DNA of 64,000 bases from positions 187,185-251,184 of the forward strand of contig JAWKJM010000003.1 in the NCBI GenBank assembly GCA_041393775.1, given 5' to 3'. The notes beneath the pieces were generated by a model. The model did not search any database. It saw only the letters and a list, made by a program, of their open reading frames with translations, and was not told where the DNA came from. Both the position numbers and the translations under genes were made by a program. This document shows positions 1,518 through 53,112 of this stretch, piece after piece. This stretch comes from Candidatus Nanopelagicales bacterium. GTDB lineage: Bacteria; Actinomycetota; Actinomycetes; S36-B12; UBA10799. The first letter of the stretch is position 1; each line of letters starts with the position of its first letter.

Positions 1518-1792
1518 CCGTCGGTGGTCGTGGCCGGCTGCGGCGTTCTGACGGGAAGAACATCGGGCGGAAATCGGTCGCGTCGGTGGTCCATGGCCGT
1601 GGCCGGCCGCCCTTTAGGCCGGGAAATGCCGGGCGGAAACCGCTCGGGTTAGAGAACGTGCACGAGGTTAGAGAAACCACACGTGCGTTCACTAACCTCG
1701 TGCACAATCTCTAACCTCGCGACCATTCTCTAACCTCGCGGCCAACTCCCACGACCGCCGAGCACACGGGCCGCCGTCGGACTACCAGTCCT
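1518..1792 (-). repeat. Mosaic palindromic intergenic repeat, copy 1 (inverted relative to the other copies)
   Basis: 28-nt arms at 1648-1675 and 1688-1715 (25/28 complementary), CACGTG-containing loop, extra CGAGGTTAGAGA iterons, and two ~60-nt CCGCCC...GGGCGG modules at 1518-1647. Confidence 0.85.
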
Positions 1793-2139
1793 TGGGCCAT
1801 CGGCAGTTAGCCCGGTTGAGGGCGACGATCTGGGCGGGATGTGCCAGACCCGCCATGTCGTGCTGCTGGGGACTACCCCGTCGGCCCAGGGCATGCACTG
1901 CCCAACAGACGGACCGGCACCTGGGAGAAGCGCCAAGCTGAGCCCCGGGATGCTGCATTCCGCAGGCGCAAGGCGGGCGGTTCGGGGCGTTGCACCGCTC
2001 TTGATTCCTTGGCGGCGTGGCACCCAACGACCTGACCCGGACACAGGATAGGGACGAATGGGTGGGCACGCCGTGGCACCAACACGCACCCGCCCGCATC
2101 GAGGTGTGGCCACAAGCGCTTCCTAACGCTCGTAGGCGC

Positions 2140-2562
2140 TCAGGCGGCCAGCGGACTGCCCGGGAGGTTGCGGGCGACAGTGAACACCACGAAGGCGACG
2201 CCCCAGATCAGGGCCCACCGCGACCCCGGCCGCTTGAAGACCGCGTACAGGAGGAACAGGACCCCAGGGATGAGCAGCAGGTTGTGCCCGACGGCCTCAG
2301 TGACGTTGCCTCGAGCCAGATCGTGCAGGCCACGCAGGGAGCCACATCCTGGGCAGTCCAGGCCGAGCAGTGCCTGCGTCGGGCACACCGCCCAGGACCC
2401 CGATCGATGCGGATCCCGGATGGACACGGCCACCGCGAGGGCGAGCACCAAGCCCAACGGCATCAGTCCCGGCCCGGCGCGGCCCAGGATGCCCGCCGGA
2501 TGCTTCCCTGCATCTGCGGCCGGTACCCCGGTCGCCCCGGATAGGGGGCTCGGTGACTGCAC
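2140..2562 (-). CDS. DUF2752-family membrane protein
   Basis: CPGCGSLRG motif plus TM helices; sits immediately downstream of a CD225 gene, a common pairing. Confidence 0.7.
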   Translation of the reverse strand: MQSPSPLSGATGVPAADAGKHPAGILGRAGPGLMPLGLVLALAVAVSIRDPHRSGSWAVCPTQALLGLDCPGCGSLRGLHDLARGNVTEAVGHNLLLIPGVLFLLYAVFKRPGSRWALIWGVAFVVFTVARNLPGSPLAA

Positions 2563-2566
2563 GTCC

Positions 2567-2890
2567 TCAGTAACCGTTGCTGCCGGCCAGCACGCCGAGG
2601 ATCACGACGAAGACGAGGTATGCCACGATCAGGACGCCACCCACGACTGCAGCCCAGATGCTCCACTTCTTGGCGCTGTCCGCCGCCTGCTGGGCTTGCG
2701 CGTACTGGCCCGCCGCGTACAGCGAATCGACCTTACTCGCGTACACGATCGCGGCGATGCCGAACGGAAGGCAACAGAACAGTGTGGTGAGGATCGCCCA
2801 CACCAGGTTGTTGTTCGGCTTCGGTGCCATGCCCATGGGTTGTCCACCCTGGGGACCCGGCGGAGGCGGCGGGGGCGCGTTGTAGGACAT
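2567..2890 (-). CDS. CD225/dispanin-family small membrane protein
   Basis: Pro-rich N-terminus, then WAILTTLFCCLPFGIAAIVYASKV motif; start placed at ATG 2890 (MSYNAPPPPP). Confidence 0.75.
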   Translation of the reverse strand: MSYNAPPPPPPGPQGGQPMGMAPKPNNNLVWAILTTLFCCLPFGIAAIVYASKVDSLYAAGQYAQAQQAADSAKKWSIWAAVVGGVLIVAYLVFVVILGVLAGSNGY

Positions 2891-3231
2891 GGATCTGACC
2901 TTCCCGACAAGGTGACTGATGGCCACGAGTGCTGCGGCACTTCGTGCGCCCGACCCTAGCAGCGCTGGGACCCCCTGATGCGCGCCGAAGCGGGGTGGTG
3001 TGTCGTGGCGAGCCAGAAACGGTGGTGGCGGTCCAGCAGCGCGCCCGTGGGTCCGCCTCCGCTATCTGACCCGGGCATCCCGCCATGCGGCCCCTAAGTA
3101 CCGCCGCCCGCACGCCGCAAACGGTGAGGCCGACCCGGGCCATCGGCCGCCCAAGGACCGTAGGCTCGATGGCAGCAGGGCGGAGGCCGGCGTCATGCGC
3201 CGCAACACGCATCGCCCGGCTGGAGGTGGAC

Positions 3232-4083: not shown

Positions 4084-6320
4084 GTGGATCCGGCGGCACC
4101 TTCGGATCGTGGTCTGCCGACCCGCCGGCCTTCCACCTCGAGCGGAGGCCACCCGGCCAGGACATGTGGCACCAGGTCGGCAACGACCGGCTCACGGCCA
4201 CCGCCCACGCAGACGGCCGGGTCGTGCTCTATTGCGCCGAAGCGGGGCTGGTCCGGATGGGCAGTGGCACAGGGACATGGGTGACACCCGACGGAAGGAG
4301 GATGGCCGCGGCCGGTCACGCGGTGACATGGGAGGTGGGGGGCGCCACCTGGACCTCCACCGGCGAGGGTTGGCGGGTGGTCCGGCGGGTGTGGGCGCCG
4401 TTCGGGCGTGAACGGGCCCTGCGCATCGACGTGGAGGTCGTCGCCTCAGACCCGCAGTTCGAAGGCGGCAGGTACATCGAGAACTGGACCTTCGACCCCG
4501 AACCCATCGTGCTGGGCGGGCTCATGGCTCCCTTCACCCCTCCACCTGCCGACTCCGCCGTGCTCCGCAAGACAACCTGGGTCATGGCGTTCGGTGTGGC
4601 AAGTGCCGCACGGCACACAACCTTCGCGCTGCGACGGCTGCTGGCCCGGTCTCTGCAACTGCACCCACAAGCGGTCGGCAACGACCTTGCCGCGGTCCTC
4701 GAGCCGGACATGCCGCGCTGGCTGCGCGAGCGCCGGCCGTCGTTCCGGGCAGCTGTCCCGGGGCCGGTGGTGGTGGCCCCACTGGCGGGCACGGAAGCCA
4801 CGAGCCGGGCGCGCAGTGGGTGCGCGGAGGTGGTCGCTGACCTACCGGACCAGGAGGTGGCCCGGGTTTCCTTCGTGGTCGGCCTGCCGCGGGCAGGCCA
4901 GTCGCGCGCGTTCCTGCAGGGGCAGCGGGCGGTAGAGCGCGCTGACACGGACCTTCGCTGGGCCGAGGTCTGGGACCTTCGCTGCGGTGACCCGGAAGTG
5001 GAACGGGAGACCCGGTGGCACGCCGGCATGCTGCGCAGCGCGCAGGCCGCCGACGCGTGCTTCGGGACGAGCTATGTCGCACAAGGCAGCGCCTATGGAT
5101 TCGTGCACGGACTGCAAGGGGCACCGCGCGATTACGCACACTTCCTGGTGCCGCTGTGCCTGATCGATCCCGAGGGCGCCCGCTCTATGTTGCTCACGAT
5201 GCTGCAGTTGCAGGACCCGGACGGGAGCCTGCGCTACGCCCACACCGGCTTCGGCAGGGCCACCTCGGCGGGCATCCACGCGGCGCCTACGGACCTGCCC
5301 ATAGCGTTGCTGTGGGCAGCCACCGAGTACGTGTGGAGCACTGGCGACACGTCGCTGCTCGATGAGCCACTGTCCTGGCGCCCAGGGCTGCCGCAGGCCC
5401 GACCAGCACCCACCGTCGCGCAGCGCCTGCTGGCTGCCTGGCGGTACCTGCGCGACGGGGTCGGGCTCGGAATGAACGGACTGCTCCGGGTCGGCAGCGG
5501 CGACTGGAACGACCCCCTGTCGGCGATGGCGCCGAGCAGACGCCGGTTCCATGCCCGGGGCGAATCCGTGTACAACTCGGCGTTCGCCGTGCACGTGCTG
5601 CCGCGAGCCGCGCGACTGCTGGAAGGCGCCGACCCGGACGCCGCAGCGGAGATGGTCCGGTGGGCAGGATCGTTGCGCGCAGGTGTGGAAGACGCGTGGG
5701 CCGGTCGTTGGTTCCTCCGGGCCCACGACGGATCCGGTGGCGTGATCGGAAACGACCGGCTCTTTCTGGACGTCAACGCGTGGTGCCTGATCGCCCAGAT
5801 CGGCACCGAGGACCAGCGTCATTACCTGTTCACAGCGATGAGCGAGCTGCTGGATGACCCGTGTCCGATCGGCGCGCTCAGCCTCGATCGACCACTGTCG
5901 GTCCGTGGTGGGATCCTGGCACCCGGCTGGGACACCAACGGCGGTGTCTGGTCAGTGCTCAACTCGCTGCTGGCCTGGGGTTACTCCTTGCACGACCCGC
6001 GTCGAGCGCACCAGTTGCTCCACAAGCAGTTGCTCGCCACCCACGCGCGCGTCTACCCCGATCTCTGGCCGGGCGTCTGGAGCGGCCCGGACTGCTACAA
6101 CGCCCCCTACGCCAGCGATCCTGGCGGCACCTTCGTACAACCGGCGACATCGATGGCGGAGTTCCCGGTCATGAATGCCCACGCGCACGCAGGTCCGCTG
6201 TTCGCGCTGCTGAAGGTGCTCGGCCTCGAGTCCGAGCCGCAGGGTCTCGCCGCGCGCCGGGAGAGCCCCATACGGCAGTGGTCGTTGTCCACGACCCTTG
6301 GCCGGTACCAGTCGTCGTGA
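4080..6320 (+). CDS. GH36-type (GH94/NdvB-like) glycosyl hydrolase/phosphorylase domain protein
   Basis: RVGSGDWNDPLS motif typical of cellobiose/chitobiose-phosphorylase-like catalytic domains; ATG 4080 is in frame with the long ORF 3645..6320. Confidence 0.6.
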   Translation: MSGSGGTFGSWSADPPAFHLERRPPGQDMWHQVGNDRLTATAHADGRVVLYCAEAGLVRMGSGTGTWVTPDGRRMAAAGHAVTWEVGGATWTSTGEGWRVVRRVWAPFGRERALRIDVEVVASDPQFEGGRYIENWTFDPEPIVLGGLMAPFTPPPADSAVLRKTTWVMAFGVASAARHTTFALRRLLARSLQLHPQAVGNDLAAVLEPDMPRWLRERRPSFRAAVPGPVVVAPLAGTEATSRARSGCAEVVADLPDQEVARVSFVVGLPRAGQSRAFLQGQRAVERADTDLRWAEVWDLRCGDPEVERETRWHAGMLRSAQAADACFGTSYVAQGSAYGFVHGLQGAPRDYAHFLVPLCLIDPEGARSMLLTMLQLQDPDGSLRYAHTGFGRATSAGIHAAPTDLPIALLWAATEYVWSTGDTSLLDEPLSWRPGLPQARPAPTVAQRLLAAWRYLRDGVGLGMNGLLRVGSGDWNDPLSAMAPSRRRFHARGESVYNSAFAVHVLPRAARLLEGADPDAAAEMVRWAGSLRAGVEDAWAGRWFLRAHDGSGGVIGNDRLFLDVNAWCLIAQIGTEDQRHYLFTAMSELLDDPCPIGALSLDRPLSVRGGILAPGWDTNGGVWSVLNSLLAWGYSLHDPRRAHQLLHKQLLATHARVYPDLWPGVWSGPDCYNAPYASDPGGTFVQPATSMAEFPVMNAHAHAGPLFALLKVLGLESEPQGLAARRESPIRQWSLSTTLGRYQSS

Positions 6321-14421: not shown

Positions 14422-14499
14422 TAGCACACAAAATGGCACGCAACCGCTGAGCCAAAAACTGCGACCTCGGCATTGCCGCAGGTCAGAGGCCTGAAATCG

Positions 14500-14542
14500 G
14501 AGCCGCCTCCGAGAATCGAACTCGGGACCTACGCATTACGAG
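14500..14542. repeat. att direct repeat (distal copy; duplicate of the tRNA-Thr 3' half)
   Basis: 43/43 identical to 23252..23294. Confidence 0.95.
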
Positions 14543-14728
14543 GCTTCCTAACGGCGTTCCGGTGGGTGTCTGGGCTCTACGTTCATGAGGAACCAACGGT
14601 GTTTCTGTTCCTCGGGTGCTCCCTAGTTGTCCAGGGTTAGTGACCTTTTTGTGACTCCCTACGACCCACGCGACCGCCCTCTCCCACTCCACCGACCTAG
14701 CAGCCGACGTTCTCGCTCAATGACGGAT

Positions 14729-15082
14729 CTAGCCCCGTGGGCTGTAGTTGCGGCGGAACCCGCCCCGGGACTGCGGTCGTTTCCCGGTCACCGGGTCAGG
14801 CATCCTCAGTACGCCGAGCAGGCGGACCAGAAGCGCCCGGAAGGTGCGGATCTGCGCTAGGCCCGGATGGGCACGCAGTCCATCCGGGCCCTGGACCATC
14901 AGGGCGTCGTCAACACTGGCATGCAGCTCGTCCAGGTGGTCCGCGACCCTGCACGCCTCCAGCAGCACGCGACGCATGGGGTTGTATTCGTCTTTGAGTG
15001 CCTCGTCGCGGCCGAGGCAGGCAGCCCACAACTCACGTCCCGAGGTGCCCAGGTCAGGCGGCGGGCTGACACGTCGGCCCAT
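14729..15082 (-). CDS. P27-family terminase small subunit-like protein
   Basis: Pattern ...GRELWAACL...LLEACRVADHLDELHASV...GLRAHPGLAQIRTFRALLVRLLGVLRMP matches my recollection of actinophage P27-type TerS; GAGGAGG RBS. Confidence 0.45.
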   Translation of the reverse strand: MGRRVSPPPDLGTSGRELWAACLGRDEALKDEYNPMRRVLLEACRVADHLDELHASVDDALMVQGPDGLRAHPGLAQIRTFRALLVRLLGVLRMPDPVTGKRPQSRGGFRRNYSPRG

Positions 15083-15347
15083 GAGCCGGTGACCTCCTCA
15101 AACCCGGGGTTCAGACAAATTCAGGTCTGCGAACTGCGAGCGACCTACCCCCGCGGAGTGGCGCCCCCACCCGGGGAGGGGGTGGGTCCGGTGGGGTGCC
15201 GGGGGGCCAGGCCGTTTCGGTCCGGCCCCCCGGGTGCCGTCGGCGGTACCCGGGCCCCGTGGTGGAAAGGACAAACACCGAGGCCCCCGGGTTCCCGACG
15301 GCGTGGGCCCGGCGCCGCGTGTTCCACTCACGCGACGCCGTGTGGTT

Positions 15348-15512
15348 TCAGAAGGTGTCCTCGTTCTCGCCGTCGGGTGCGCCCATGGGTACCCAGTGGC
15401 CCAGGGCGATCTGTTCTTCGAGCAGTCGTTGGGCTTCGGGTTTGCGGTCGACGCCGTCGACGTCGATGAGGTGGACGGCGCCGTTGCGGCCGCGGAACCA
15501 TTGCGGGGTCAT
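15348..15512 (-). CDS. Hypothetical small protein (54 aa), below the ORF-track cutoff
   Basis: ATG preceded by GAAGGAG; G/C-rich third positions; MTPQWFRGRNGAVHLIDVDGVDRKPEAQRLLEEQIALGHWVPMGAPDGENEDTF. Confidence 0.55.
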   Translation of the reverse strand: MTPQWFRGRNGAVHLIDVDGVDRKPEAQRLLEEQIALGHWVPMGAPDGENEDTF

Positions 15513-15542
15513 GTGTGCTCCTTCGGATTCTCGGTGGGGGGG

Positions 15543-16301
15543 TTAGCGTGCCCGCCGGGCGGCGTCGCCGGCGGCGTCGCCGGTCCGGTGGCGTTTGCGG
15601 GGCGGGCGTACGACGCCGCGATGCGTGCTGTCGGGCGCCGCGGGCTGGTCCGGCGCCGCGGGCGGTGGGGGCGCGTCGGGGCCGCGGCGGTGCAGGTAGG
15701 CCGTGACGCTGGCCATGGAGTCGAGCAGCGCGGCGCCACCGGCGAAGCCCTCGAACGGCATCGCGTCGCCGTCGGCCACGGCGAGCCCGCCGTAGTCGAC
15801 CGTCCGGGCCCCCGCGAGTTGCCGGGTGTGGAACGCCTGCATGCTGGCCGCACGCACCCAGCGGGCTTGTGCGGCGGTCAGCACGGCCAGCGCGTCGACG
15901 ACGTCCTGGCGGCGGGTCTGGCACTCCTGCGCCCAGCGGCGGGACTCGGCAGCGGCCGCCGTGCGCAGCTCGGCCTCCAGCCCGCCGGACAGCCATTCCA
16001 GGGCCAGGGCCCGGGCGTGGGCGGCCTCGTTCTGCCGGGCTACCTCCACGGCGTGTTCACGCTGGTCGATGTCGTCGTCGACGGACTGCGGGTCGTCGCC
16101 GTTGCGCACGGCGTCGGCGCGGGCGGCGTCGGCGCGCACCTTCGCCGCCTCGACGGCGCGGACCAGCGGGGCCACCGCGGCCTCGGCGTCGGCCAGGGCG
16201 GCCTGCATGGCGGTGAACTTCTCGACATGGGCGCGCAACGGTTCGGGGAACGCGTAGCCGGGCGGAAGCGTGATGTCGCGGGCGTTCTGGTGTCTCATCA
16301 C
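15543..16301 (-). CDS. Hypothetical protein, Ala-rich and predicted coiled-coil
   Basis: 252-aa ORF; its start overlaps the upstream stop (ATGA). Confidence 0.6.
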   Translation of the reverse strand: MMRHQNARDITLPPGYAFPEPLRAHVEKFTAMQAALADAEAAVAPLVRAVEAAKVRADAARADAVRNGDDPQSVDDDIDQREHAVEVARQNEAAHARALALEWLSGGLEAELRTAAAAESRRWAQECQTRRQDVVDALAVLTAAQARWVRAASMQAFHTRQLAGARTVDYGGLAVADGDAMPFEGFAGGAALLDSMASVTAYLHRRGPDAPPPPAAPDQPAAPDSTHRGVVRPPRKRHRTGDAAGDAARRAR

Positions 16302-16519
16302 CGGCCCGCCTTCCGTGCGGCGTCACGGATCTCGTCGGCGGTGGCGAACCGCTCCCCGGCCGCCTCGAACGGCAGTGGGGCGCGCCCGGACTTCAGTACC
16401 TGGAACTGGCCGAGCCGGTTGGCGTCGACGCGTTGCTGGTCGTCCATGGCGAGCATCTGCTCGCGGGTCAGTTGCGGCGGGATGGCCCCGTCGGGCCGGT
16501 AGTAGTTGTCTTCTTCCAT
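16298..16519 (-). CDS. Hypothetical protein
   Basis: 73-aa ORF with AAGGAGAAG RBS. Confidence 0.6.
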   Translation of the reverse strand: MEEDNYYRPDGAIPPQLTREQMLAMDDQQRVDANRLGQFQVLKSGRAPLPFEAAGERFATADEIRDAARKAGR

Positions 16520-16620
16520 CGGTTCTTCTCCTTGTCGAGGTTGCGTGTGATGGATCGGGCGAATGTCTCGTCATGGGGTGGCCGCGGCCTGTCGCGGCCG
16601 TAGGTGCGTCTGGGCATTGA

Positions 16621-16782
16621 TCACCCCCCTCCGGTGCCGTCGTAGGCGGGGTCGGTCAGTCCGGGGATCCGGTCGAGGGGATCACGGTGATCCGGGCAGT
16701 AGCCGCCGAGCGGCCAGGGACCGAGGAACGGGCACGCGGGCTCCGCACACCGGCGGATCGGCAGTGCGTCTCGAAGGGTCAT
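16621..16782 (-). CDS. Hypothetical Cys-rich small protein (53 aa), possible zinc ribbon
   Basis: ATGA overlap with the upstream gene; CAEPAC...CPDH spacing; below the ORF-track cutoff. Confidence 0.5.
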   Translation of the reverse strand: MTLRDALPIRRCAEPACPFLGPWPLGGYCPDHRDPLDRIPGLTDPAYDGTGGG

Positions 16783-17195
16783 AGTTCGTCGTCCTCCTCA
16801 GGTGACATGTACGGGGTGGGCCGGGGGACCGGGGTCCCTTGCCCGTTCTCGAGGCGGGGCCACGGAACGAGCGCGTAGATCCCCGCTTTCCCGGCGAGCG
16901 GCAAGCCGCGCTGGACGGCCTTGGTCGCGGCGAGCGGGGTCGCGAACGGTCCGAGGATCAGCGGCCGCCGGGAGTTCTCGAGGACCAGGACCACGACGTA
17001 CCGAGGACGATCGGAGTCGCGAGCCGACAGGATCCGTGCGGCGATCGCCTCGGCGGTCTTCGGATGGATCTCGGCCCCAACGAACTCGCGTACCGCTTCG
17101 TGCGCCGCGTCACAGTGGGCCTTGAGCACGCGGGTATCCAGCAACGGGCCCACCCGGTACGGCACTCCATTGGCGGGAGCAGTAGAAGTTGTCAC
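16779..17195 (-). CDS. Hypothetical protein
   Basis: 138-aa ORF, coupled at both ends to its neighbours. Confidence 0.6.
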   Translation of the reverse strand: MTTSTAPANGVPYRVGPLLDTRVLKAHCDAAHEAVREFVGAEIHPKTAEAIAARILSARDSDRPRYVVVLVLENSRRPLILGPFATPLAATKAVQRGLPLAGKAGIYALVPWPRLENGQGTPVPRPTPYMSPEEDDEL

Positions 17196-18502
17196 GACGA
17201 ACCTCCGGTCCCGAATGCCTCCCGGAGCGTGGTCTCAGGCGACGGTTCGGACGGTTGGGACGGTTCGGACGCTTCCTGAGAAGGGGTAGGGGGGACTGAG
17301 GGGAGGTAGCGGTCCCATGCATCGGCGAAGGCGAACCGGAGGTATCCGCGTGCCGTGTTCGCGGCGTTGTGGCTCGGTGTGACCCGGTACGGGTGCAGGA
17401 TCCGGGCCAGCCGGTGCGGCGTGAGCCCGCGCTCCCCGTAGGGGCCTCCCGGGGTCCAGGGTCCGTCCTCGATCGCGTGCAGCTGGAGGAGGAGGTCCCG
17501 GCTGGAGACCCACTCCTTGCCGTGCGGCCAGGTCTCCCGGATCTCGCGGAGAAGCCGGATCGGGATCGTTTCGACCTCGAGGGTCTCGGTGAGTACCGAG
17601 ACCGCCTCGCGGGCTTCCTCGGGCCAGTCGCCGCCGGCCGCGTCAGCGATCGCGAGCAACGGCTCCCACACGTCGAGCAGTCGGTCCGCGATCCCCGGCT
17701 CGTCGTCGGGAAACACGGGCTTCCAGGGCCGGGAGGCCCACTCTGCGACCCGGTCGCGCAGCGCGTGGCCCTCCGGTACCGAGGTCGCGACGCGCCAGCG
17801 ACGGACCGTTTCGGAGGGTTTGCGCTTGCGGATCCGGACCACCACCGAGCGATCGAGGATCGTCTCCGGGGGATCGCCGTTGCCCGCCAGCGCCACGGCC
17901 GCGAACGTCTCGAACGGCTCGACCTCGAAGGCCTTCCCGACGCACCGCAGGACCGGGTTCCCGCGACGGTATCCCGCGTTCACGATCCCCCGGACCGCAT
18001 CGCCGGAGTCCGCGCTCGAGCGGAAGATCACGTCGTACTCGTCCAGGAGCAACGTAGGCGCGCGCTTCTCGATCGCCCGGTACAACGTGGCCGCGCTCAC
18101 GTCGGCCGCACGGAGCGGATCCTTGACCGTGGTCTCGAGGATCTCCAGGAGGCGGGTCTTCCCCGATCCCTTCTCGGCGCTGGAGACCGCCAGCCGCGCG
18201 GTCGAGTCGAATCGGTCGATCGTGTGGCTATGCACGATCCACAGCGCGATCGCCTTCGCGGCGTACGGGCTCGGGAGTACCGCGTGGCCGTTTACGAAGT
18301 CCTCGAGGTCCGCGAGGATCCCGTGGAGTTCCCGGTCACTTGGGACATTGGTACTAGTAGCACCACTCTCACCTTCGTAAGAAGAAGAGGCGGGAGCGTC
18401 CGAATCCTGGTCCCCTACCCTCCCTGACACTTTCCCAGAAAGCGTCCCAAGCGTCCGAATCGTCCGGTCCGTCGAGCGTTTAGCCATTCCGGACCCCCGC
18501 AT
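17192..18502 (-). CDS. DUF3631-family protein (P-loop; usual partner of PrimPol in actinobacterial integrated elements)
   Basis: SSAEKGSGKTRLLEIL Walker-A-like motif and LLLDEYD; alternative start at ATG 18487. Confidence 0.75.
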   Translation of the reverse strand: MRGSGMAKRSTDRTIRTLGTLSGKVSGRVGDQDSDAPASSSYEGESGATSTNVPSDRELHGILADLEDFVNGHAVLPSPYAAKAIALWIVHSHTIDRFDSTARLAVSSAEKGSGKTRLLEILETTVKDPLRAADVSAATLYRAIEKRAPTLLLDEYDVIFRSSADSGDAVRGIVNAGYRRGNPVLRCVGKAFEVEPFETFAAVALAGNGDPPETILDRSVVVRIRKRKPSETVRRWRVATSVPEGHALRDRVAEWASRPWKPVFPDDEPGIADRLLDVWEPLLAIADAAGGDWPEEAREAVSVLTETLEVETIPIRLLREIRETWPHGKEWVSSRDLLLQLHAIEDGPWTPGGPYGERGLTPHRLARILHPYRVTPSHNAANTARGYLRFAFADAWDRYLPSVPPTPSQEASEPSQPSEPSPETTLREAFGTGGSS

Positions 18503-19367
18503 CGAGCCCGGACCGGACGGTCGCGTGGATCTCCTGCTCGGTGAGCGGTCCGCGGTCTCCTTCGTCCTCAGACAAAGAATGGTGTGCCGTGGCGATGAGC
18601 CAGGATTCCGCCTGGTCGTACTCGATCCGTCCGGCCGCGACGTGCTTCCCGAGCCGGTAGGCCGCGACGTTCAGGGCGTGGTTTCGCTCTCCCGGCTTCG
18701 CGAGCATGAGCCGGTGCCGCTCCCCGAGGAGCACGGCCTCCAGGTACGTCGAGGCGTTGCGGATCTCGACCTCGGGGAACGTGCGCCGATCGGCAGCCGG
18801 TTTCGGTCTCGCGATCAGATCGACGAGCCATTCGGGGGCCGGTGCGATCTGCGGCTCGAAGTCCTCCAGGTGCTCGAAGCCGTCCGGGCCGATCGCCACG
18901 GTCTCTTCGTACTGGGCTTCCGGAAGATACCGGGAGCCGTTGATCCGCGAGTACGGGGCCAGGACGTACCCGCCCGTGCCGCGTACATCGACTCCCGGCA
19001 GCATGCCGACGCGGTTCCCGAGGTCCTCGGAGGTCTGGAAGTACATGTGTGCACCTCCGCTCGGCGTGGCGACGGTGTAGGTCTCGGTCCAGCCCGGATC
19101 CGCACCCACCGAGTAGGCGTAGGCGTCGATCTCCGAGAAGCCGGATACCGCGTCATTGATATCCAGGTCGATCGCGACGAGCCCGGAGCCGGTCCGGATC
19201 CCGACATTGCAGGTCGGACCCTTCTCCCACCACGCGCTGATCCGATCGAGGTCTCCGGTCGCTGAGTCCACGCCGGAGCGAGTCGCCGGCCGTTTCCCGT
19301 TCGGTAGGACCGGGAGGATCGGCCAGCGACTCGCCAGCGTCAGAGCGACGCTCCGAAGCCGCATCAT
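18480..19367 (-). CDS. Bifunctional DNA primase/polymerase (Prim-Pol) domain protein
   Basis: WPILPVLPNGKRP...NVGIRTGSGLVAIDLD motifs. Confidence 0.8.
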   Translation of the reverse strand: MMRLRSVALTLASRWPILPVLPNGKRPATRSGVDSATGDLDRISAWWEKGPTCNVGIRTGSGLVAIDLDINDAVSGFSEIDAYAYSVGADPGWTETYTVATPSGGAHMYFQTSEDLGNRVGMLPGVDVRGTGGYVLAPYSRINGSRYLPEAQYEETVAIGPDGFEHLEDFEPQIAPAPEWLVDLIARPKPAADRRTFPEVEIRNASTYLEAVLLGERHRLMLAKPGERNHALNVAAYRLGKHVAAGRIEYDQAESWLIATAHHSLSEDEGDRGPLTEQEIHATVRSGLDAGVRNG

Positions 19368-19828
19368 CAGAAGTCGGGCCCCTCGGTGACGGCCGCTTCG
19401 GCTTCCTCGGTGAAGTCGTCGCCGGAGTCCTCGTTGTGCGGTTCCAGCGCGAACGCCTTGGACTCGTCACGGGCCCCTTCTTCGTGAACGGCCACGCGAT
19501 ACGAGACGTAGTTACGGCCGCTCTTCTCCGCGGTCTTCTTGCCGAGGTAGCGGATCGCGATCCGGTCGGCGGTCTGAACCTTGCGCTCGAGGAGTTCGTT
19601 CTTCAGGACGGAGTGCAGGACCGCGACGCGGGTAGGCCCGTTGTCGGTGTCCAGGATCAGGACCGGCAGGTATCGGCCGTCCTTGGTCTTCGGGTGCTCG
19701 ATTGCGGTGATCGTGCCGAGGATCGTGTCGCCCTCGGTCTCGGGCTTCCACTCGTTGCCGCGCTCGGGCTCCTTGTCGAGTTGTTCCAGGAGGTCGAGGT
19801 CGGGGTTAGTCTGGAGTTGCTCGGTCAT
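19367..19828 (-). CDS. Hypothetical protein
   Basis: 153-aa ORF with AAGGAAG RBS; its stop overlaps the PrimPol start (ATGA). Confidence 0.6.
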   Translation of the reverse strand: MTEQLQTNPDLDLLEQLDKEPERGNEWKPETEGDTILGTITAIEHPKTKDGRYLPVLILDTDNGPTRVAVLHSVLKNELLERKVQTADRIAIRYLGKKTAEKSGRNYVSYRVAVHEEGARDESKAFALEPHNEDSGDDFTEEAEAAVTEGPDF

Positions 19829-19997
19829 GGTGAAGCGTCTTCCTTTCGTCGTGATGGAGGTCCCTCGAGACGGTCAGGTCTCGGGGGATCTTCTTCTTCG
19901 TGGTCCGGGTGAAGATCCCGGATCGCTCCCCGCCGAGGTCGCGAACCTCGAGGCGGCCGGTGCCGCGCGGGGATGGCCGGTCAAGCCGCCGGGACAC
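19806..19997 (-). CDS. Possible small basic protein overlapping both neighbours
   Basis: GTG-initiated 63-codon ORF with ~80% GC3 across the otherwise unassigned 19829-19980 gap. Confidence 0.3.
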   Translation of the reverse strand: MSRRLDRPSPRGTGRLEVRDLGGERSGIFTRTTKKKIPRDLTVSRDLHHDERKTLHHDRATPD

Positions 19998-20241
19998 TCC
20001 CCGGATCCAGCCAGCCGGAGGCGGTGACCTCGAGCTGCTGATTCGGCTGGACCTCGAGGATCTCCTGGAACGGTCCGCTCCGATCCCCGCTCTTCGGACG
20101 GCCGATCAGCACGAACCTCCGGCCGAGGAGGATCCAGTACGTCTCGGCCCAGTAGCCCCGGACCTTCGGGGCCAGGCCCCAGACGTACTCCGATACCTCG
20201 GAGCCGTCCTTGCGGGTGAAGGTGACCTCGATGCGCTTCAT
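19981..20241 (-). CDS. Hypothetical protein
   Basis: 86-aa ORF starting MKRIEVTF; shares one base with the upstream TAA stop. Confidence 0.55.
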   Translation of the reverse strand: MKRIEVTFTRKDGSEVSEYVWGLAPKVRGYWAETYWILLGRRFVLIGRPKSGDRSGPFQEILEVQPNQQLEVTASGWLDPGSVPAA

Positions 20242-20537
20242 TACGGAGCGCCCCAGAACCAGTCGCCGAAGAGTTCCCACGCGAGGTCCATCGCCGCCTG
20301 GGTCCCCTTCATCACACGGGCCCGGCGGATCTGGGCCCACGCCTCCGCGAACCTTATGGCTTCGGCCCATATCACGGAATCGCCGGCGCTGAACGCGCGC
20401 AACTGGAAGCCTTCGCAGGCGTCCTGCCGGCGTTCGAGTTCGTCGGTGCTCCACGCCTTGATCGCGAGGTACTTCTCCTTCTGCATCGCCCAGTCGAGTT
20501 CGAGTCGCGGATCCGGGACGATTTCGAGGCGCTTCAT
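20241..20537 (-). CDS. Hypothetical protein
   Basis: 98-aa ORF starting MKRLEIV; ATGA overlap with the upstream gene. Confidence 0.55.
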   Translation of the reverse strand: MKRLEIVPDPRLELDWAMQKEKYLAIKAWSTDELERRQDACEGFQLRAFSAGDSVIWAEAIRFAEAWAQIRRARVMKGTQAAMDLAWELFGDWFWGAP

Positions 20538-20881
20538 CGGGACCCCTCCTTCACGTCGAGCCGGGCAACGCGCTTGAGATCGCGAAGAGCGTTGTCGGTG
20601 ACGCGATCGAAGTCCGCGAGACCGAGGAGCGACTGGACCACGGCCACCCGCAAGAAGTTCTTCGCGTCCGTAACCTTGCGGTCGGCCTCCGTCCCGATAC
20701 CGACCGCTCGGGCGGCCTCGGACTGCGAGTAGTCCCGGTAGTGAGACCAGATCCAAAGAGCCTGGTCCTGCACGTTGCTCTCGGTGTCGATCACGTCGAG
20801 AACCAGACGCGCGGTTCGGGCTTCTGCGGTGAGGAGCTTCCACTCCTTCGGAGTGGTTATGTCGTAGGTCTGTGAGACCAT
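20534..20881 (-). CDS. Hypothetical protein
   Basis: 115-aa ORF with GAAAGGAAC RBS. Confidence 0.6.
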   Translation of the reverse strand: MVSQTYDITTPKEWKLLTAEARTARLVLDVIDTESNVQDQALWIWSHYRDYSQSEAARAVGIGTEADRKVTDAKNFLRVAVVQSLLGLADFDRVTDNALRDLKRVARLDVKEGSR

Positions 20882-20950
20882 GAGGTGAGTTCCTTTCTCT
20901 TCTTGGGTTAGGGCAAGCGGCGATCGGTCGGTCCGGTCGCCGCTTTCGTT

Positions 20951-23247: not shown

Positions 23248-23251
23248 GCCT

Positions 23252-26157: not shown

Positions 26158-26161
26158 CCGT

Positions 26162-43517: not shown

Positions 43518-43680
43518 CTCGCCTCCAGTGTCGCTTCGGCCACTCTGCCAGACAATCCTCTGACTGACCTGCCGAGTGCGAGACTCCGCTTCTGCGCTCG
43601 CCACCGGCCAGAAGGGAGGTGGATCACCTCGCCTCACACGGCACTAGCCGGGAGAAACGCGTGGCCTCCGACAACGGCTC

Positions 43681-43760
43681 GTGTACTCAGTAGGAGCAGG
43701 AGTTGGCCACGAGGTTAGGAACACACGCGTGGTTTCTCTAACCTCGTGCACGTTCTCTAG
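43681..43760 (+). repeat. Mosaic repeat, copy 5a (truncated; ends TTCTCTAG)
   Basis: GTGTACTC...GGCCACGAGGTTAGG-loop-TTCTCTAACCTCGTGCACGTTCTCTAG, abutting copy 5b. Confidence 0.8.
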
Positions 43761-43940
43761 TCCGAAAATGGCTGGTGTACTCGGTCGCCGCAGAAGTGGG
43801 CCGCGAGGTTAGAGAATGGTCGCGAGGTTAGAGATCGTGCACGAGGTTAGTGAACGCACGTGTGGCTTCTCTAACCTCGTGCACGTTCTCTAACCCGAGC
43901 GGTTTCCGCCCGGCATTTCCCCGCCTGAACGCCGCGGCCG
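43759..43940 (+). repeat. Mosaic palindromic repeat, copy 5b (full length)
   Basis: AGTCCGAAAATGG tail, three CGAGGTTAGAGA iterons, arms at 43827-43854 and 43867-43894, then a CTAACCCGAGCGGTTTCCGCCC module. Confidence 0.9.
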
Positions 43941-44100
43941 CCACGCGGTGCTGCGACTTCAGCAGCGGGTAGACCACGTCGTCGGCCACCCACGCCATCC
44001 CCCACCTTGTCCCGGTCATTCGGCACCGGAGCCGACCCCGCGTGCACCCGGGAAGACGCTGCGACCCGCTCCACCAGCCTGAACCCAAGCAAACGTCGGA

Positions 44101-46586: not shown

Positions 46587-47682
46587 CGTCGCGGAACTCT
46601 ACGGCCGAGACCGTTCGCACAACCGCGTGCGGATCGGGTTCCAGGACCGCGATCCCGGCGATCCGCCGCATGCCGGTCCGATCGCGCGCCACGTGCACCA
46701 CCGCATGCAGACCCGCAGCGACCTGGGCGTGCAGACCCTCCCTGTTCAGTCCGGCGGGCAGTGCCAGGGACTCCAGGCGGGCCGGGACGTCGGCGGCACT
46801 GTTCGCGTGGACCGTGCCACAGCCTCCCTCGTGACCCGTGTTCAGGGCGGCCAGCAGATCCACCACCTCGCCCCCGCGCACTTCTCCGACCACCACCCTG
46901 TCGGGGCGCATTCGCAAAGCCTGCCGGACAAGATCACGCATGCTCACAGCGCCGGACCCCTCGGTGTTCGCCGGGCGCGATTCGAGTCGCACCACATGCG
47001 GGTGCTCGGGTTCCAATTCCGCGGAATCCTCCACGATCACGATGCGCTCACGGGGATCGACAGCCGACAGCAGCGCGTTGAGCAGAGTCGTCTTGCCCGA
47101 TCCGGTCCCACCCGACACCAGGAAGGCCGCCCGCCCGGCGACGAGGTCGGCCAGCATCGCCACACCGGCCTCGGGGACCATGCGGACACCGGCCAGATCG
47201 GCCAGGGTGAACACACGCCGGCGCGGCACCCGCAGCGACAGGCAGGTGCCGTATGGACTGATCGGGGGCAGCACGGCGTGCAGCCGGATCCCGTTGGGTA
47301 GCCGGGCGTCGACGTACGGCGAGCTGTCGTCGAGCCTCCGGCCCGCGCTGCTCGCAAGACGCTGCGCCAACCGCCGCACCGAGGCCTCGTCGGGGAACCG
47401 CACGCTGCTGCGTTTCAGGCCCTCGCCGGCATCGACCCATACCTGTGACGGGCTGTTCACCAGGACGTCGGTGACCGAGGGGAGCCGCACCAGTGCCTCC
47501 AAGGCCCCCAGACCGGCGATCTCGGTGCGCAAGGCTTGCACGACCTCGACGATCGCCGCCTCCGGCAAGACGAGCCCTTCGGCCCGCAAAGCCTCCGTCA
47601 CCCAGACCGGGGTCGCCGACCAGCCCTGCGCGGCCAGCCGCCGCCGGACGCGTTCCACGAGCGCCTCGCTGGGCTGGTTCAC
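46543..47682 (-). CDS. tadA: TadA/CpaF-family secretion ATPase
   Basis: VSGGTGSGKTTLLNALL Walker A, IVIVEDSAEL, GHEGGCGTVHANS. Confidence 0.9.
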   Translation of the reverse strand: MNQPSEALVERVRRRLAAQGWSATPVWVTEALRAEGLVLPEAAIVEVVQALRTEIAGLGALEALVRLPSVTDVLVNSPSQVWVDAGEGLKRSSVRFPDEASVRRLAQRLASSAGRRLDDSSPYVDARLPNGIRLHAVLPPISPYGTCLSLRVPRRRVFTLADLAGVRMVPEAGVAMLADLVAGRAAFLVSGGTGSGKTTLLNALLSAVDPRERIVIVEDSAELEPEHPHVVRLESRPANTEGSGAVSMRDLVRQALRMRPDRVVVGEVRGGEVVDLLAALNTGHEGGCGTVHANSAADVPARLESLALPAGLNREGLHAQVAAGLHAVVHVARDRTGMRRIAGIAVLEPDPHAVVRTVSAVEFRDGEVVAGPARGKLAA

Positions 47683-48812
47683 CCCAGCACCTCGCGCAGG
47701 ATGCCCGCACTGGCCCTTGCCAGCGGGGTCCGTGACCGGTACCCGGGTGGCTCACCGCGCTCCAGCCGCTGATCCAGACCGCGGTCGGCGGCAACCGCGG
47801 CCAGCACCGGCAGGCCCACGGCCTCACCGACATCGGCGCTGGCCAGTCCCCCCGGATTCGGGCCACGCACCACTATCTCGCACATCGACAGTTCGAAGCG
47901 AGTGGACATCCGCCGTGCTGCCCGCACAGAGCGAACGTCGGCCGGCACCACCATCAGAACGCGGTCGCACCTGGCCAGAGCCTCCTGCTGGGAGGCGCCT
48001 GCCCCCCGGCCGAGATCCACAACGGTCAGCGGAACGCACAGGCGCGCGGCGTCGATCACGGCGCTTGCCACCCCGGCTGGCAGGTCCTCGTGGCCGTCAT
48101 CGGACCATCCCAACAACCCGATTCCTTCCACGTGCCCGATCGTGGCCTCCAGGGAGCGGGCCGGAATCCGCCCGAGCCCGGCGCGAACCTGATCCCAGGT
48201 CAGTCCCGAGGCCCGGTCCGCCCCCAGGATCACGGCCAGCCCGCATCCCAACGGGTCGAGATCGAACAGGTAGGGGGTCCGCCGAGCCCGGACCGCTGCC
48301 ATCGCCAGCGACGATGCGAACACCGAGGCACCGGCCCCGCCGCGGCAGCCGAGCACCCCCACGACCGCACCGAGTGCCTCGGACTGGCCTGCGCGGGCGA
48401 CCAGATCGGACAGCCAGCCCTGATCACCGGGCGGGTCCACGACGGCTTCTGCTCCGAGTTCGAACGCCAGACGCCAGTCCTGCGCATCGATGCGGCCGAA
48501 GACCACGACCCCTGGGCGACGCGGCAGTCTGACGCCGACGACGGCGGACAGGAGGTCGGCGCCCACCACGACGACCGCCGCGCGAGACCACAGCAGAGCG
48601 GCACTGGACACCTCCGGCTGGACGTCCACGCCGATCTCCGAGGCCGACGCCACCGCCAGCAGCAGATCGGTGCTGTCCGGGTCGTCGCAGATCAGCAGGA
48701 CGTCGGCGGCGGACCCGCGCTCGCGAGGACGAACCACTGGCTCTGGGGACTGGTCCTGCCCGTCGGCACGGATCGCGCGCAATGCCACACACACATCGTG
48801 GGTGGTCATCAT
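47679..48812 (-). CDS. Ssd/CpaE-like septum-site-determining protein (helicase/secretion neighbourhood)
   Basis: Deviant ParA/MinD-like GCRGGAGASVFASSLA motif; start at ATGATG 48812. Confidence 0.7.
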   Translation of the reverse strand: MMTTHDVCVALRAIRADGQDQSPEPVVRPRERGSAADVLLICDDPDSTDLLLAVASASEIGVDVQPEVSSAALLWSRAAVVVVGADLLSAVVGVRLPRRPGVVVFGRIDAQDWRLAFELGAEAVVDPPGDQGWLSDLVARAGQSEALGAVVGVLGCRGGAGASVFASSLAMAAVRARRTPYLFDLDPLGCGLAVILGADRASGLTWDQVRAGLGRIPARSLEATIGHVEGIGLLGWSDDGHEDLPAGVASAVIDAARLCVPLTVVDLGRGAGASQQEALARCDRVLMVVPADVRSVRAARRMSTRFELSMCEIVVRGPNPGGLASADVGEAVGLPVLAAVAADRGLDQRLERGEPPGYRSRTPLARASAGILREVLG

Positions 48813-49089
48813 CGCTGGTGGCGGCGGCGGACAACATCTGTGGACGAGCGGGCGCGACCGCCGGACACGGAGAAGGCCCCCGCAGGGGGGGATGCGGGGG
48901 CCTTCGGGCCGATGATTGGGGGGAAAGATCGGCCGCTCGCCCGTTTCGGGCATCTCCACTATCTCGCCATCCCAAATCCGGCGCAAGAGTTTAAGGCAAG
49001 GATTGACTAAGTATTGACAAATCATCTGGTTGACCGATGTCCATGCGCCGAAAGATCTAGGGACTCATGGCCTGTGCGACCATGTCAGG

Positions 49090-51302: not shown

Positions 51303-52681
51303 GTCGCCTCCTGACATGTCTTGTCGTACAACTGCGGGAATCGCCCGGACGGGTCGTACCTCTGTTTCAACTCGGCATACGCAGCACCGCCATAGATCGC
51401 GTAGAACTCGTCCCGGTCGTAGTAGGAGGTCGAGTACAGCGACTTGCGGCCACCAAGATCGGCGACCACTCGCTCGATGCGCCGATTGACCCGGCCGGCG
51501 TCCGGATCGTCACCGCGGCCCAGCGCGACCCGGGACCAGAACCCGACGTTCACGTAGGTGACCTGAGGATCGAACTCGTACAACGTCCACCGCCGGTCCG
51601 GGTCGCGCTGACGCAGTGGGCACAACCAGGCGGGCGCGATTCCCACCTCCCGCTCGAAGAAGTCCAGGAAGTCGGGCAGCGTCTGAACCGGAACCTCCAC
51701 GTCCTGCACGACGATCTCCTTCGGCGCACGCCGCCGAAGTGCGTCGAGGCGCCGCGAGAACTGCCACCGGCGGTCCGCGGCGATGATCTTCCAATACACG
51801 TCACTGCGCTTGTACCGGTCCGGCCACAACCGGCGGACGAACGGCTTCTGCACCCCGAACGCCGACGAGCACCAGAACCAGTCGGTGTCCCAGCGCCACA
51901 AGTAGTCCTCGGTGGTCAGCGCGTCAGTCGTGCGCTCAGGGATCGACTGGTAGTAGATCTTCTGGCCTGTGTAGTCAGAGGGCTGCGCCTGATCCGAGTA
52001 GACCCCGAGCGTCAGGTACATCTCGCGCGGGGAGAACCAGGTCGCATCCATGTAGTCCACCGGGACACCCCGGAACGCACGTCCGGCGGTGACCGTCGCG
52101 AATGCCGCAGCGAGGTCGGTCGAATTGTCGAGGCGGACGTGCCGCAAGCCCACGAAGTCGCGGACCGGTTCCAGTTCGATGTTCAGGCGCAGCGCATAGC
52201 CCAGGCTCCCGTAGGAATTGGGGAAGCCGAAGAACAGGCCCCGGTGCTCCCCGTCGGGGGTGGCCGTGACCACCTCGCCGGTACCGGTGAGCACCTCAAG
52301 GCTCAGCACGGACTCGTGCGGGCACCCATTGCGGAAGCTGGCCGCCTCGATGCCGAGCCCCGTGACCGCGCCGCCCAACGTGATCGTCCGCAGTTGCGGC
52401 ACGCACATCGGGACCAGTCCGTGCGGCAATGTCGCGGCCACAAGATCCTCGTAGGTGGTCAGCCCACCGACCACTGCGGTGCGACCGGCGACGTCGAGAT
52501 CGAGCACACCCGTGAAGTCCGACAGATCGAGTTCGCCCGGTGTCCGGGGCCGCTCCCGGAACAGATTCGATGTCGGCTTGCGCAGACGCACCTGGCCGGG
52601 AGCGTGCAGCAACTGCTCGGCAGCTGCCGCAGCGGCGACGTCGTAGTCCAGATCCGAACTCACACACGCGAATCTAGCCAC
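51299..52681 (-). CDS. FAD-binding (PCMH-type) oxidoreductase (BfaA/TmsA-like)
   Basis: FAD-binding domain motifs (RTITLGGAVTGLGIE); coupled to the Cfa-like gene. Confidence 0.8.
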   Translation of the reverse strand: MARFACVSSDLDYDVAAAAAAEQLLHAPGQVRLRKPTSNLFRERPRTPGELDLSDFTGVLDLDVAGRTAVVGGLTTYEDLVAATLPHGLVPMCVPQLRTITLGGAVTGLGIEAASFRNGCPHESVLSLEVLTGTGEVVTATPDGEHRGLFFGFPNSYGSLGYALRLNIELEPVRDFVGLRHVRLDNSTDLAAAFATVTAGRAFRGVPVDYMDATWFSPREMYLTLGVYSDQAQPSDYTGQKIYYQSIPERTTDALTTEDYLWRWDTDWFWCSSAFGVQKPFVRRLWPDRYKRSDVYWKIIAADRRWQFSRRLDALRRRAPKEIVVQDVEVPVQTLPDFLDFFEREVGIAPAWLCPLRQRDPDRRWTLYEFDPQVTYVNVGFWSRVALGRGDDPDAGRVNRRIERVVADLGGRKSLYSTSYYDRDEFYAIYGGAAYAELKQRYDPSGRFPQLYDKTCQEAT

Positions 52682-52702
52682 GATCGCGGCGAGGTTCCAG
52701 GG

Positions 52703-52807
52703 GCGAAGCCGAAGAAAGCCGGGTCCGAGTGATCAAGCGTGCTCAATGGCCGGTCAAGCCGGCCCATCCCCGACGGGGGTGCAGCGCCGCGTGGGTCCTC
52801 GGACCCG
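52703..52807. repeat. 105-bp direct duplication, left copy (segment X)
   Basis: About 96% identical to 53114..53219; contains a 10-bp closing inverted repeat CGGGTCCGAG...CTCGGACCCG and the hairpin GGCCGG-TCAAG-CCGGCC. Confidence 0.9.
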
Positions 52808-52810
52808 ACA

Positions 52811-52850
52811 GGGGTTGGCCGCGAGGTTAGAGAATGCGCACGTTCTCTAG
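52811..52850 (+). repeat. Mosaic repeat, copy 6a (internally deleted; ends TTCTCTAG)
   Basis: GGTTGGCCGCGAGGTTAGAGAATGCGCACGTTCTCTAG, abutting copy 6b. Confidence 0.75.
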
Positions 52851-53112
52851 TCCGAAAATGGCTCGTGTACTCGGTCGCCGCAGAAGTGGGCCGCGAGGTT
52901 AGAGAATGGTCGCGAGGTTAGAGATTGTGCACCGGGTTAGTGAATGCACACGTGGCTTCTCTAACCTCGTGCACGTTCTCTAACGCGAGCGATCTCCGCC
53001 CGCCGTCTTCTCGCCTGAACGGGCGGCCAGGCCGCGGCCATGGACCACTAACGCGAGCGCTTTCCGCCCGGCCTTTCCCGCCCGAATGGGCGGCCGGACC
53101 ACGGCCGCTGAT
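52849..53112 (+). repeat. Mosaic palindromic repeat, copy 6b, plus two CTAACGCGAGC...CCGCCC...GGGCGG modules
   Basis: Arms at 52917-52944 and 52957-52984; modules at about 52981-53047 and 53048-53112. Confidence 0.9.

Follow-up and report, generated by a model that had tools for sequence, protein, structure and literature searches.

A gene bracketed by two palindromes

The stretch of DNA analysed here ('the window') comprises 64,000 nucleotides of Candidatus Nanopelagicales bacterium (assembly GCA_041393775.1, contig JAWKJM010000003.1, positions 187,185 to 251,184). It carries a dispersed family of palindromes of about 76 nt, lying between genes at six loci, and two copies of the palindrome bracket a gene for a putative nuclease of 287 amino acids. 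The relation between this gene and the palindromes is the main subject of this work. The gene and its immediate surroundings contain the following features:

32334-32409, forward strand: palindrome copy 3, upstream of the nuclease gene and 76 nt from its ATG; it lies between tmk and the nuclease gene, which are divergent
32430-32437, forward strand: a TCCACAGA box, after the upstream palindrome and ahead of the nuclease start codon
32486-33349, forward strand: gene for the candidate cognate protein (287 aa), with an AbiEi-like winged helix in its N-terminal part and a PD-(D/E)XK nuclease domain of the Vsr/DUF559 (MTES_1575) type in its C-terminal part
33365-33440, forward strand: palindrome copy 4, in the downstream flank, 15 nt past the stop codon; it lies between the nuclease gene and topA, which are convergent

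Copies 3 and 4, which bracket the gene, share 95% identity in direct register and differ from the other copies in the window. A first-pass annotation of this DNA, made from the letters alone, had proposed a dedicated protein for the repeats; the gene at 32486-33349 lies inside the span that it described and is a strong candidate for that protein. The core of the palindrome has two GGTTAGAGA iterons in each arm at 19-nt spacing. It reads CGAGGTTAGAGA, 7 nt, CGAGGTTAG(A/T)GAA, a centre containing CACGTG or CACGCGTG, and then TTCTCTAACCTCGTGCACGTTCTCTAACC; the two alternative centres, first proposed in the earlier annotation, were borne out on reading the six loci.

The product of the gene has no Pfam match by itself, and NCBIfam gives it no name. 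Its homologues carry PF18741, PF04480 and PF13338 (22 and 10 of 40 family members match PF18741 or PF04480). In the AlphaFold model (pLDDT 92), Foldseek matches the N-terminal part to the AbiEi protein Rv2827c (1zel) and the C-terminal part to the catalytic domain of I-Bth0305I (3r3p, template-modelling (TM) score 0.72) and to the DUF559 protein NGO0050 (3hrl). Sequence profiles run against PDB sequences gave weak matches to 3r3p and 3hrl, and PADLOC gave weak AbiEi matches. Residues S177-P-G-E180, Q197, D210, E221-F-D-G224 and R242 are invariant in the alignment and K227 is nearly so (at least 90% of sequences). The Vsr/DUF559 core pattern D...E-x-D-G...K/H is thus present as D210, E221-F-D-G and K227, alongside the Vsr-like fold matches. 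The protein suits the role of a nuclease acting on the palindromes: it joins a DNA-binding AbiEi-like domain to a nuclease core which all of the family has kept and whose fold is that seen in I-Bth0305I. An AbiE toxin-antitoxin pair was considered and rejected: there is no AbiEii partner, and the neighbours are tmk and topA, likewise at the orthologous loci.

The family to which the protein belongs is very large, with 3,790 clusters at E<=1e-30 and 17,453 at E<=1e-10. These thousands of 50%-identity clusters are mostly annotated as hypothetical or 'DUF559 domain-containing'. No relative turned up when viral contigs were searched for the family, nor did plasmids yield a tblastn match to the window protein (E<=1e-8) or to P0060.

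The box between palindrome and gene also recurs. The heptamer TCCACAG stands at this position in six of the seven homologues fetched from metagenome-assembled genomes (MAGs) or Logan contigs, with both palindrome types, and is followed by A in five of them and by C in L009 (L-numbers denote the fetched sequences). The box reads TCCCCAGA in L012; a TCCACAG(A) box is found in the Nonomuraea homologue L034 as well. CTGTGGAT sometimes accompanies the box on its upstream side. The gene-palindrome unit may use the box as a promoter or operator element.

Recurrence of the arrangement in homologues

Thirteen homologues were fetched, from MAGs, Tsukamurella, Arthrobacter and Nonomuraea; all of their open reading frames (ORFs) match the family hidden Markov model (HMM; E 2e-19 to 2.5e-31). 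Gene-specific repeats bracket the gene on both sides in 11 of the 13, ten with palindromes of their own and one (L033) with a 72-nt inverted pair, and lie on at least one side in 12. At the tmk/topA site, the orthologues in L009, L010 and L012 (79, 77 and 66% protein identity) have palindromes of identical architecture on both sides. The palindrome upstream of tmk is present at the orthologous site in L006-L008, L009, L010 and L012, and that between the nuclease gene and topA in L009, L010 and L012.

The association extends to other genomic contexts and to other repeat sequences. A 57%-identical homologue in a different context (L028) has the iteron GGTGAG(A/C)G on both sides and the ACACGCGTG centre of the window family. 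The window's own species carries a 46%-identical paralogue (L014) with a different palindrome on both sides, built of GTTGGTTGAC-type iterons, a GTGCAG spacer and a CGCGCG centre; L029 has a palindrome of this second type upstream of its gene and a solo copy 5 kb off. The three paralogues of Tsukamurella tyrosinosolvens (L030, L032, L033) and the three family members of Arthrobacter (L035, L036, L037) each have their own flanking repeats, of 57-75 nt and about 1.0 kb apart, those of L033 forming the inverted pair.

Solo copies, lying apart from the gene, were found for all nine repeat types that could be checked in neighbouring or same-genome sequence, the window type included. The window has four solo loci of its type, and two solo copies of the repeat type that flanks the local gene were seen in L009, two in L028 and one in L029. 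A blastn search with five repeat types from the cultured organisms gave additional copies at 20, 11 and 5 places in Tsukamurella and at 10 and 38 places in Arthrobacter. These matches occurred only in the gene-carrying organism and most lay under no annotated feature; there are up to about 19 solo loci per repeat type. The one solo copy of the cultured-organism set that was inspected lies between convergent ilvE-like and MpaB genes. Within Tsukamurella, paralogues that share a genome each have a separate, private repeat population.

Directly upstream of a solo palindrome in L009 (16700-16800) stand three tandem units of about 41 nt (GGGCCCAGGTCAGCCGCCAGCGAGGTTGGGTCTGCGGCTAG), each with a degenerate iteron.

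The repeat family in the window

All six loci and eight copies of the first-pass annotation were found where it had placed them, as six full cores, one half copy and one remnant. Full-length loci add a 5' tail (the T module) and hairpin modules beginning CTAAC(C/G)CGAGC (H modules), both of which were recovered by repeat finding, as was the 76-nt family itself. Besides copies 3 and 4, the loci are made up as follows:

1535-1792, reverse strand: locus 1, an inverted mosaic of two H modules (1535-1652), core (1644-1719), extra iteron (1720-1738) and T module (1739-1792), between an acyltransferase gene and a DUF2752 protein gene
26236-26477, forward strand: locus 2, a mosaic of T module (26270-26313), core (26314-26389) and H module (26381-26439) between 38-nt direct repeats (26236-26273 and 26440-26477), lying between convergent genes for patatin and a 691-aa protein
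43667-43759, forward strand: locus 5a, a T-like tail and a half palindrome (43706-43759), HMM score 49 bits; locus 5 lies between a TadE-like gene and a STAS gene
43760-43945, forward strand: locus 5b, with T module (43760-43803), extra iteron (43804-43822), core (43823-43898) and H module (43890-43945)
52811-52849, forward strand: locus 6a, an internally deleted remnant in which the outer-left iteron is fused to the right end; locus 6 lies between a FAD-binding gene and an ABC1 kinase gene
52850-53112, forward strand: locus 6b, with T module (52850-52893), extra iteron (52894-52912), core (52913-52988) and two H modules (52980-53047 and 53048-53112)

Two of the earlier spans needed adjustment: locus 2 had been located correctly but reaches 26236-26477 once its flanking direct repeats are counted, and the coordinates given for locus 5 exist but the gap in which it lies is larger than had been stated, at 583 nt (43518-44100). 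In the half copy at locus 5a the outer-left iteron is missing and the inner-left iteron has a 2-nt deletion. The remnant at locus 6a ends in a junction of TTCTCTA with GTCCGAAAATGG, and the identical junction is found at locus 5.

The T and H modules are added at four of the six loci, and loci 1, 5 and 6 each have one extra direct iteron, in line with the one or two of the first-pass annotation. The modular combinations of T, H, iteron and core bear out its description of a mosaicism like that of bacterial interspersed mosaic elements (BIMEs); a 184-nt composite is common to loci 2, 5 and 6 and is inverted at locus 1. The repeats are far in excess of chance. The 13-mer TTCTCTAACCTCG occurs 20 times in the window with up to one mismatch (0.03 expected) and the 9-mer iteron GGTTAGAGA 31 times (4.6 expected), with none of 100 shuffles as high in either case. 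A profile HMM built from 16 copies, a model of the kind that had been suggested, recovered the six full cores, the half copy and remnants with nhmmer and no further full copy in the window.

The cores are A/T-richer than their surroundings, as claimed (GC 0.51-0.57 against 0.681 for the window). Folded as single-stranded DNA they give -18 to -31 kcal/mol, with z-scores of -4.5 to -10. The pairing of 25-27 of 28 arm bases described earlier holds for copies 1, 2 and 5b and not for the rest, the Watson-Crick pairs in the six cores numbering 25, 25, 22, 20, 26 and 23. The conserved T/T mismatch (alignment column 36) is indeed common to copies 1, 2, 5b and 6b, and a second one (column 20) is present in all six.

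Concerted change in the iterons

The evolution of the palindrome was followed in an alignment of 16 type-I copies. The second variable position of the iteron is A/T in the window and in L010 and G/C in L009 and L012, in both iterons of both arms; at orthologous sites the iterons of the relatives L009 and L012 read GGTTGGAG against GGTTAGAG in the window. A further iteron position has changed in concert in the same way in L028. Across the alignment 81% of cells pair with their partner in the other arm, against 36-42% when the partner column is slid, and 36 cells have changed on both sides compared with 20.9 in shuffles, none of 500 of which was as high. The mismatches comprise 23 G:T, 24 A:C and 83 others, and so have no G:U strand bias. 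Since direct and inverted repeats change together and the mismatches lack strand bias, the constraint is likely to be on a DNA sequence that is recognised and not on a transcribed hairpin; a strand-specific RNA hairpin was rejected on the same balance of G:T and A:C mismatches.

Gene-flanking copies within one genome are more alike than orthologous copies, and the likeness runs a few nucleotides past the palindrome, which points to gene conversion or duplication.

Gain, loss and rearrangement

The repeats come and go between close relatives. The gap at locus 5 is empty at the orthologous position in L017 and L018, where it measures 49-64 nt against 583 nt in the window, and the locus 6b insertion is absent from the orthologous ABC1/FAD-binding gap in L017, L018, L026 and L027. 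Conversely, L009 has a copy between MFS transporter and epimerase genes where the window has a 115-nt gap and no copy. At the site downstream of the patatin gene L009 has a plain palindrome without T or H modules and the window a mosaic with both, which implies that a mosaic variant replaced or extended an older copy. In L009 the MFS transporter gene itself is split (15246-16362, equivalent to L017 19609-20725), with a 221-aa ORF called antisense to it; this points to a frameshift or to misassembly of that long contig.

Copies also exist outside the window. At 2850-2970 of L006, which is a short-read contig from the window's species, a TetR/FAD-oxidase region and not the nuclease gene follows the tmk-upstream palindrome, connected to it via an outer iteron, GGTTAGCGA, that is missing from the window (compare 32405-32485). 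Either the DNA was truly rearranged at the repeat or the assembly joined sequences across it; since the junction leads to a different gene through an iteron that the window lacks, it implies further copies. Logan contigs from several runs of the same species (L019-L023) have 3' ends within the H module at locus 5 (window position about 43930; one stops about 75 nt short), which is what multiple genomic copies of the H module would produce.

At locus 6 the insertion is flanked by two copies of a motif of about 108 nt that resembles the small RNA Ms1:

52702-52810, reverse strand: copy A (Rfam Ms1, 16.8 bits, below threshold)
53113-53220, reverse strand: copy A' (Rfam Ms1, 33.3 bits, E 8.7e-7, far under the gathering score of 162)

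The two are 96% identical over 78 nt, and A' keeps the native 5' flank. The motif is conserved and structured, with a closing stem CCGGGTCCGAGT...ACTCGGACCCGG followed by TTTCTT, and is single-copy in four relatives (L017 about 5102-5215, L018 about 5140-5250, L026 about 5009-5120 and L027 about 5032-5145). The ABC1/FAD-binding synteny resembles that of the Rv3659c-Rv3661/MTS2823 region of Mycobacterium tuberculosis. The repeats at locus 6 were inserted beside, and duplicated, this Ms1-like motif.

Gene neighbourhood and other features of the window

The copies are strictly intergenic, as had been claimed: all lie between ORFs with coding-type GC content at third codon positions (GC3) and Pfam support, and they occupy convergent, divergent and tandem gaps alike. 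The warning that the repeats create spurious ORFs was justified, since ORFs called at 1409-1714 (forward), 43828-44088 (reverse) and 52918-53178 (reverse) cross them. Their common peptide, ...GRKPLGLENVHEVRE(A/T)T(R/C)AFTN(L/P)VH..., has no match in a database of 5.8 billion proteins.

Three direct repeats of about 70 nt within topA (33603-34080) encode Toprim_C_rpt domains and are unrelated to the palindrome family. A 6C RNA match at 48868-48939 (reverse strand; 48.3 against an Rfam gathering score of 47) lies inside ORF 47679-49025, a homologue of Rv3660c_N whose N-terminus is probably over-called. A likely integrated element occupies 14487-23326, marked by a 56-nt direct repeat (14487-14542 and 23239-23294, 89% identical) that overlaps the tRNA gene at 23253-23326 (reverse strand). 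It contains genes for a tyrosine integrase (21881-23155), a Prim-Pol protein (18480-19367) and a DUF3631 protein (17192-18502), and its GC content falls to 0.63-0.66. This tRNA-flanked island (14.5-23.3 kb) has no copies of the palindrome, and a tie between the two was rejected for that reason.

Searches for known families and classes

The palindromes are dispersed and intergenic, at six loci in 64 kb with at least one copy beyond the window, and in this respect resemble repetitive extragenic palindromes (REPs) and REPINs. The first-pass annotation had taken them for an undescribed family, which is supported by their intergenic dispersal and by the absence of an Rfam match. At the gathering thresholds of Rfam 15 only tRNA and 6C RNA are found in the window, and permissive scans of loci 5 and 6 gave chance-level matches only on the repeats; a known RNA family was therefore rejected. 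Exact core-pattern scans of the genome contig collection, made without the GGTTGGAGA variant, found nothing, and a scan of viral contigs gave no match. The same pattern in metagenomes gave five chance matches in unrelated DNA, four in contigs of about 38% GC and one in a contig of 67% GC.

The earlier suggestions as to a transposase were not supported. No RAYT (REP-associated tyrosine transposase) or IS200-IS605 TnpA was found among about 40 window ORFs scanned against Pfam, and the candidate protein is not a TnpA. A description of the repeats as like miniature inverted-repeat transposable elements (MITEs) fails in that there is no short target-site duplication, and no parent autonomous insertion sequence (IS) with matching ends was found in the window, nor any true match in the viral, metagenome and genome collections. 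The GTAG/CGTC tag is absent, the arms beginning CGAGGTTAGAG.

Other classes were tried and rejected. No intrinsic terminator or promoter site matches at any copy. Integron attC sites, which read 5'-RYYYAAC...GTTRRRY-3' and stand in cassette arrays near an IntI integrase, have the reverse polarity (5'-GTTAGAG...CTCTAAC-3' is found here), the copies are scattered among core genes, and the sole integrase of the window is that of the tRNA-flanked island. A resemblance to parS or to the IdeR box does not stand because polarity, spacing and sequence are unfit and the iteron varies between species.

Interpretation

The nuclease that the gene at 32486-33349 encodes probably has the palindromes as its cognate DNA sites, gene and palindromes forming a REPtron-like system in which a unit of palindrome, TCCACAGA box, gene and palindrome is accompanied by solo and mosaic copies. 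This reading starts from what is observed: the association of gene and repeat, the specificity of each gene for its repeat, the solo copies, the concerted change of iterons and the turnover in presence and absence. In such a system the winged-helix domain would bind the iterons, four or five in number at 19-nt spacing. It would probably do so as oligomers, either on the symmetric site itself or on a cruciform or hairpin extruded from it, and the nuclease domain may nick or cleave at or near the palindrome. Repair templated by another palindrome could then homogenise the copies of each genome by gene conversion, co-converting adjacent T and H modules, and might occasionally seed a copy at a new site, preferably at hairpin-forming DNA.

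Several points weigh against this reading. The 13 homologues are a small share of several thousand family members; in L029 there is a palindrome upstream of the gene and none downstream, and the Nonomuraea homologue L034 is without clear palindromes. The flanks of copies 3 and 4 have no target-site duplication, and none that is short occurs at the loci. The long flanking duplications at loci 2 and 6 (38 and about 108 nt) fit no standard mechanism; they might stem from a staggered cut made where a hairpin or cruciform has its base. Neither the gene-flanking copies nor the relatives have T or H modules, which makes the link of these modules to the protein indirect. Three orthologous sites have been kept across species in which the flanked protein is only 66-79% identical, as would also be expected of a stable host function. 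An autoregulatory operator could account for the upstream palindrome, and a terminator for the downstream one. It also counts on this side that iteron binding, cleavage, mobility, the copying mechanism and host benefit are what we infer.

Four alternatives were weighed and are less consistent with these data. It is unlikely that the palindromes are non-mobile operator or nucleoid-type sites of a winged-helix regulator (the AbiEi-like protein or another), maintained by the host for regulation, domain boundaries or supercoiling. The three sites conserved at orthologous positions would suit such a role, as would four symmetric iterons whose concerted change fits co-evolution with a DNA-binding protein, and autoregulation through inverted repeats has a precedent in AbiEi proteins. 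However, copies are found at convergent gene ends and not at promoters alone, their presence varies among close relatives, and the half copies, remnants and tandem mosaics resemble decay or rearrangement and not tuned operators; nor does the role sit well with nuclease core residues conserved family-wide or with a private repeat population for each paralogue in one genome. The solo palindromes might instead be footprints, like solo long terminal repeats, of a mobile palindrome-gene-palindrome cassette whose gene is deleted by recombination between its flanks. In all cases examined the two flanks, some 1 kb from each other, are almost identical and in direct orientation, and the presence of homologues in unrelated genomic contexts implies that the gene has moved. 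Yet each genome shows a single gene of a given type but as many as about 19 solo loci, the solo copies in the window differ from the gene-flanking ones in having T and H modules and extra iterons, and the family HMM detected no gene fragments beside solo copies, all of which makes this origin quite improbable.

Dispersed intergenic palindromes in BIME-like mosaics are what would be expected of a classical REP or MITE family moved by a RAYT or IS transposase elsewhere in the genome, with the bracketing of the DUF559 gene secondary, but a GTAG/CGTC tag and the signature of terminal inverted repeats with a duplication are both lacking, no Y1 or DDE transposase is encoded among the roughly 40 window ORFs scanned, and gene-specific bracketing in 12 of 13 homologues is inexplicable by chance insertion; this is very unlikely to be the explanation. 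An RNA-level action, in which the elements would serve as bidirectional terminators, as hairpins that stabilise mRNA or as genes for small RNAs, draws on the very stable hairpins and on the position of two of the six loci between convergent genes. It is the hardest of all to credit, as there is no U-tract or terminator-like site at any copy, no G:U strand bias (23 against 24) and no Rfam family match, and as a hairpin has no need of direct iterons within its arm or of extra iterons outside its stem.

If the palindromes are the sites of the nuclease, a testable function is gained for a very large orphan protein family, and a lifestyle of 'single-copy enzyme plus private palindrome population', so far tied to RAYTs, arose independently with another enzyme in high-GC Gram-positives. 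Cultured hosts with the same arrangement are available in Tsukamurella tyrosinosolvens NCTC13231 and Arthrobacter sp. StoSoilB13. The repeats also matter in practice, in that they break short-read assemblies, create spurious ORFs and mark rearrangement points. The link of the nuclease gene to bracketing and dispersed palindromes is new here: a literature search, incomplete in its coverage and not proof of novelty, found no paper that describes the arrangement or ties the DUF559/MTES_1575/AbiEi_4 protein family to dispersed palindromes.

Comparison with known systems

In the fold of its N-terminal domain the protein resembles the AbiEi antitoxins of type IV AbiE systems (Rv2827c, 1zel), which bind paired inverted repeats in their own promoters and autoregulate. 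It differs from them in having no AbiEii nucleotidyltransferase neighbour and a nuclease as its C-terminal domain. The catalytic domain shares its fold with that of I-Bth0305I (the 3r3p and 3hrl group; TM 0.72 to 3r3p), a homing endonuclease and a selfish-element nuclease that promotes copying through repair (PMC3424549). In contrast to I-Bth0305I, the window gene stands alone between genes and not in an intron or intein, its product has another DNA-binding domain, and its putative targets are multi-copy palindromes instead of a single homing site.

Like MITEs and the BIMEs of Escherichia coli, the repeats are small, non-coding, multi-copy intergenic elements with mosaic modules. MITEs differ in their short target-site duplications and in having a parent IS with matching ends, neither of which was found here, and BIMEs in their palindromic unit (PU) motifs with integration host factor (IHF) or gyrase sites, which are unrelated in sequence to the window repeats.

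The closest parallel is with REP/REPIN elements with RAYT genes, which were reportedly described by Nunvar in 2010. As in these systems, the palindromes are dispersed between genes and form mosaic, BIME-like clusters, a vertically inherited enzyme gene is flanked by the same palindromes, each paralogue has one private repeat population, and copies persist at orthologous sites. REP/REPIN-RAYT systems have been termed 'REPtrons' (Bertels & Rainey 2011, PMC3116915; Di Nocera 2013, PMC3733652; PMC3337134), and the hallmark of a REP is a conserved GTAG (or CGTC) tag at one end of a stem-loop of 20-40 nt (PMC3733652). Here the tag is lacking, the hosts are Actinomycetota, and the enzyme combines a winged helix with a PD-(D/E)XK (Vsr/DUF559) domain whereas theirs is a HUH/Y1 transposase; the repeat is a unit of about 76 nt, each arm of which holds two direct iterons at 19-nt spacing, and not a doublet of 20-40-nt hairpins. 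Tentatively, then, AbiEi-like/DUF559 genes of Actinomycetota may represent an unrecognised class of self-propagating palindrome systems, in which a PD-(D/E)XK nuclease maintains and spreads private palindromes of 60-76 nt as a convergent counterpart of REPIN-RAYT.

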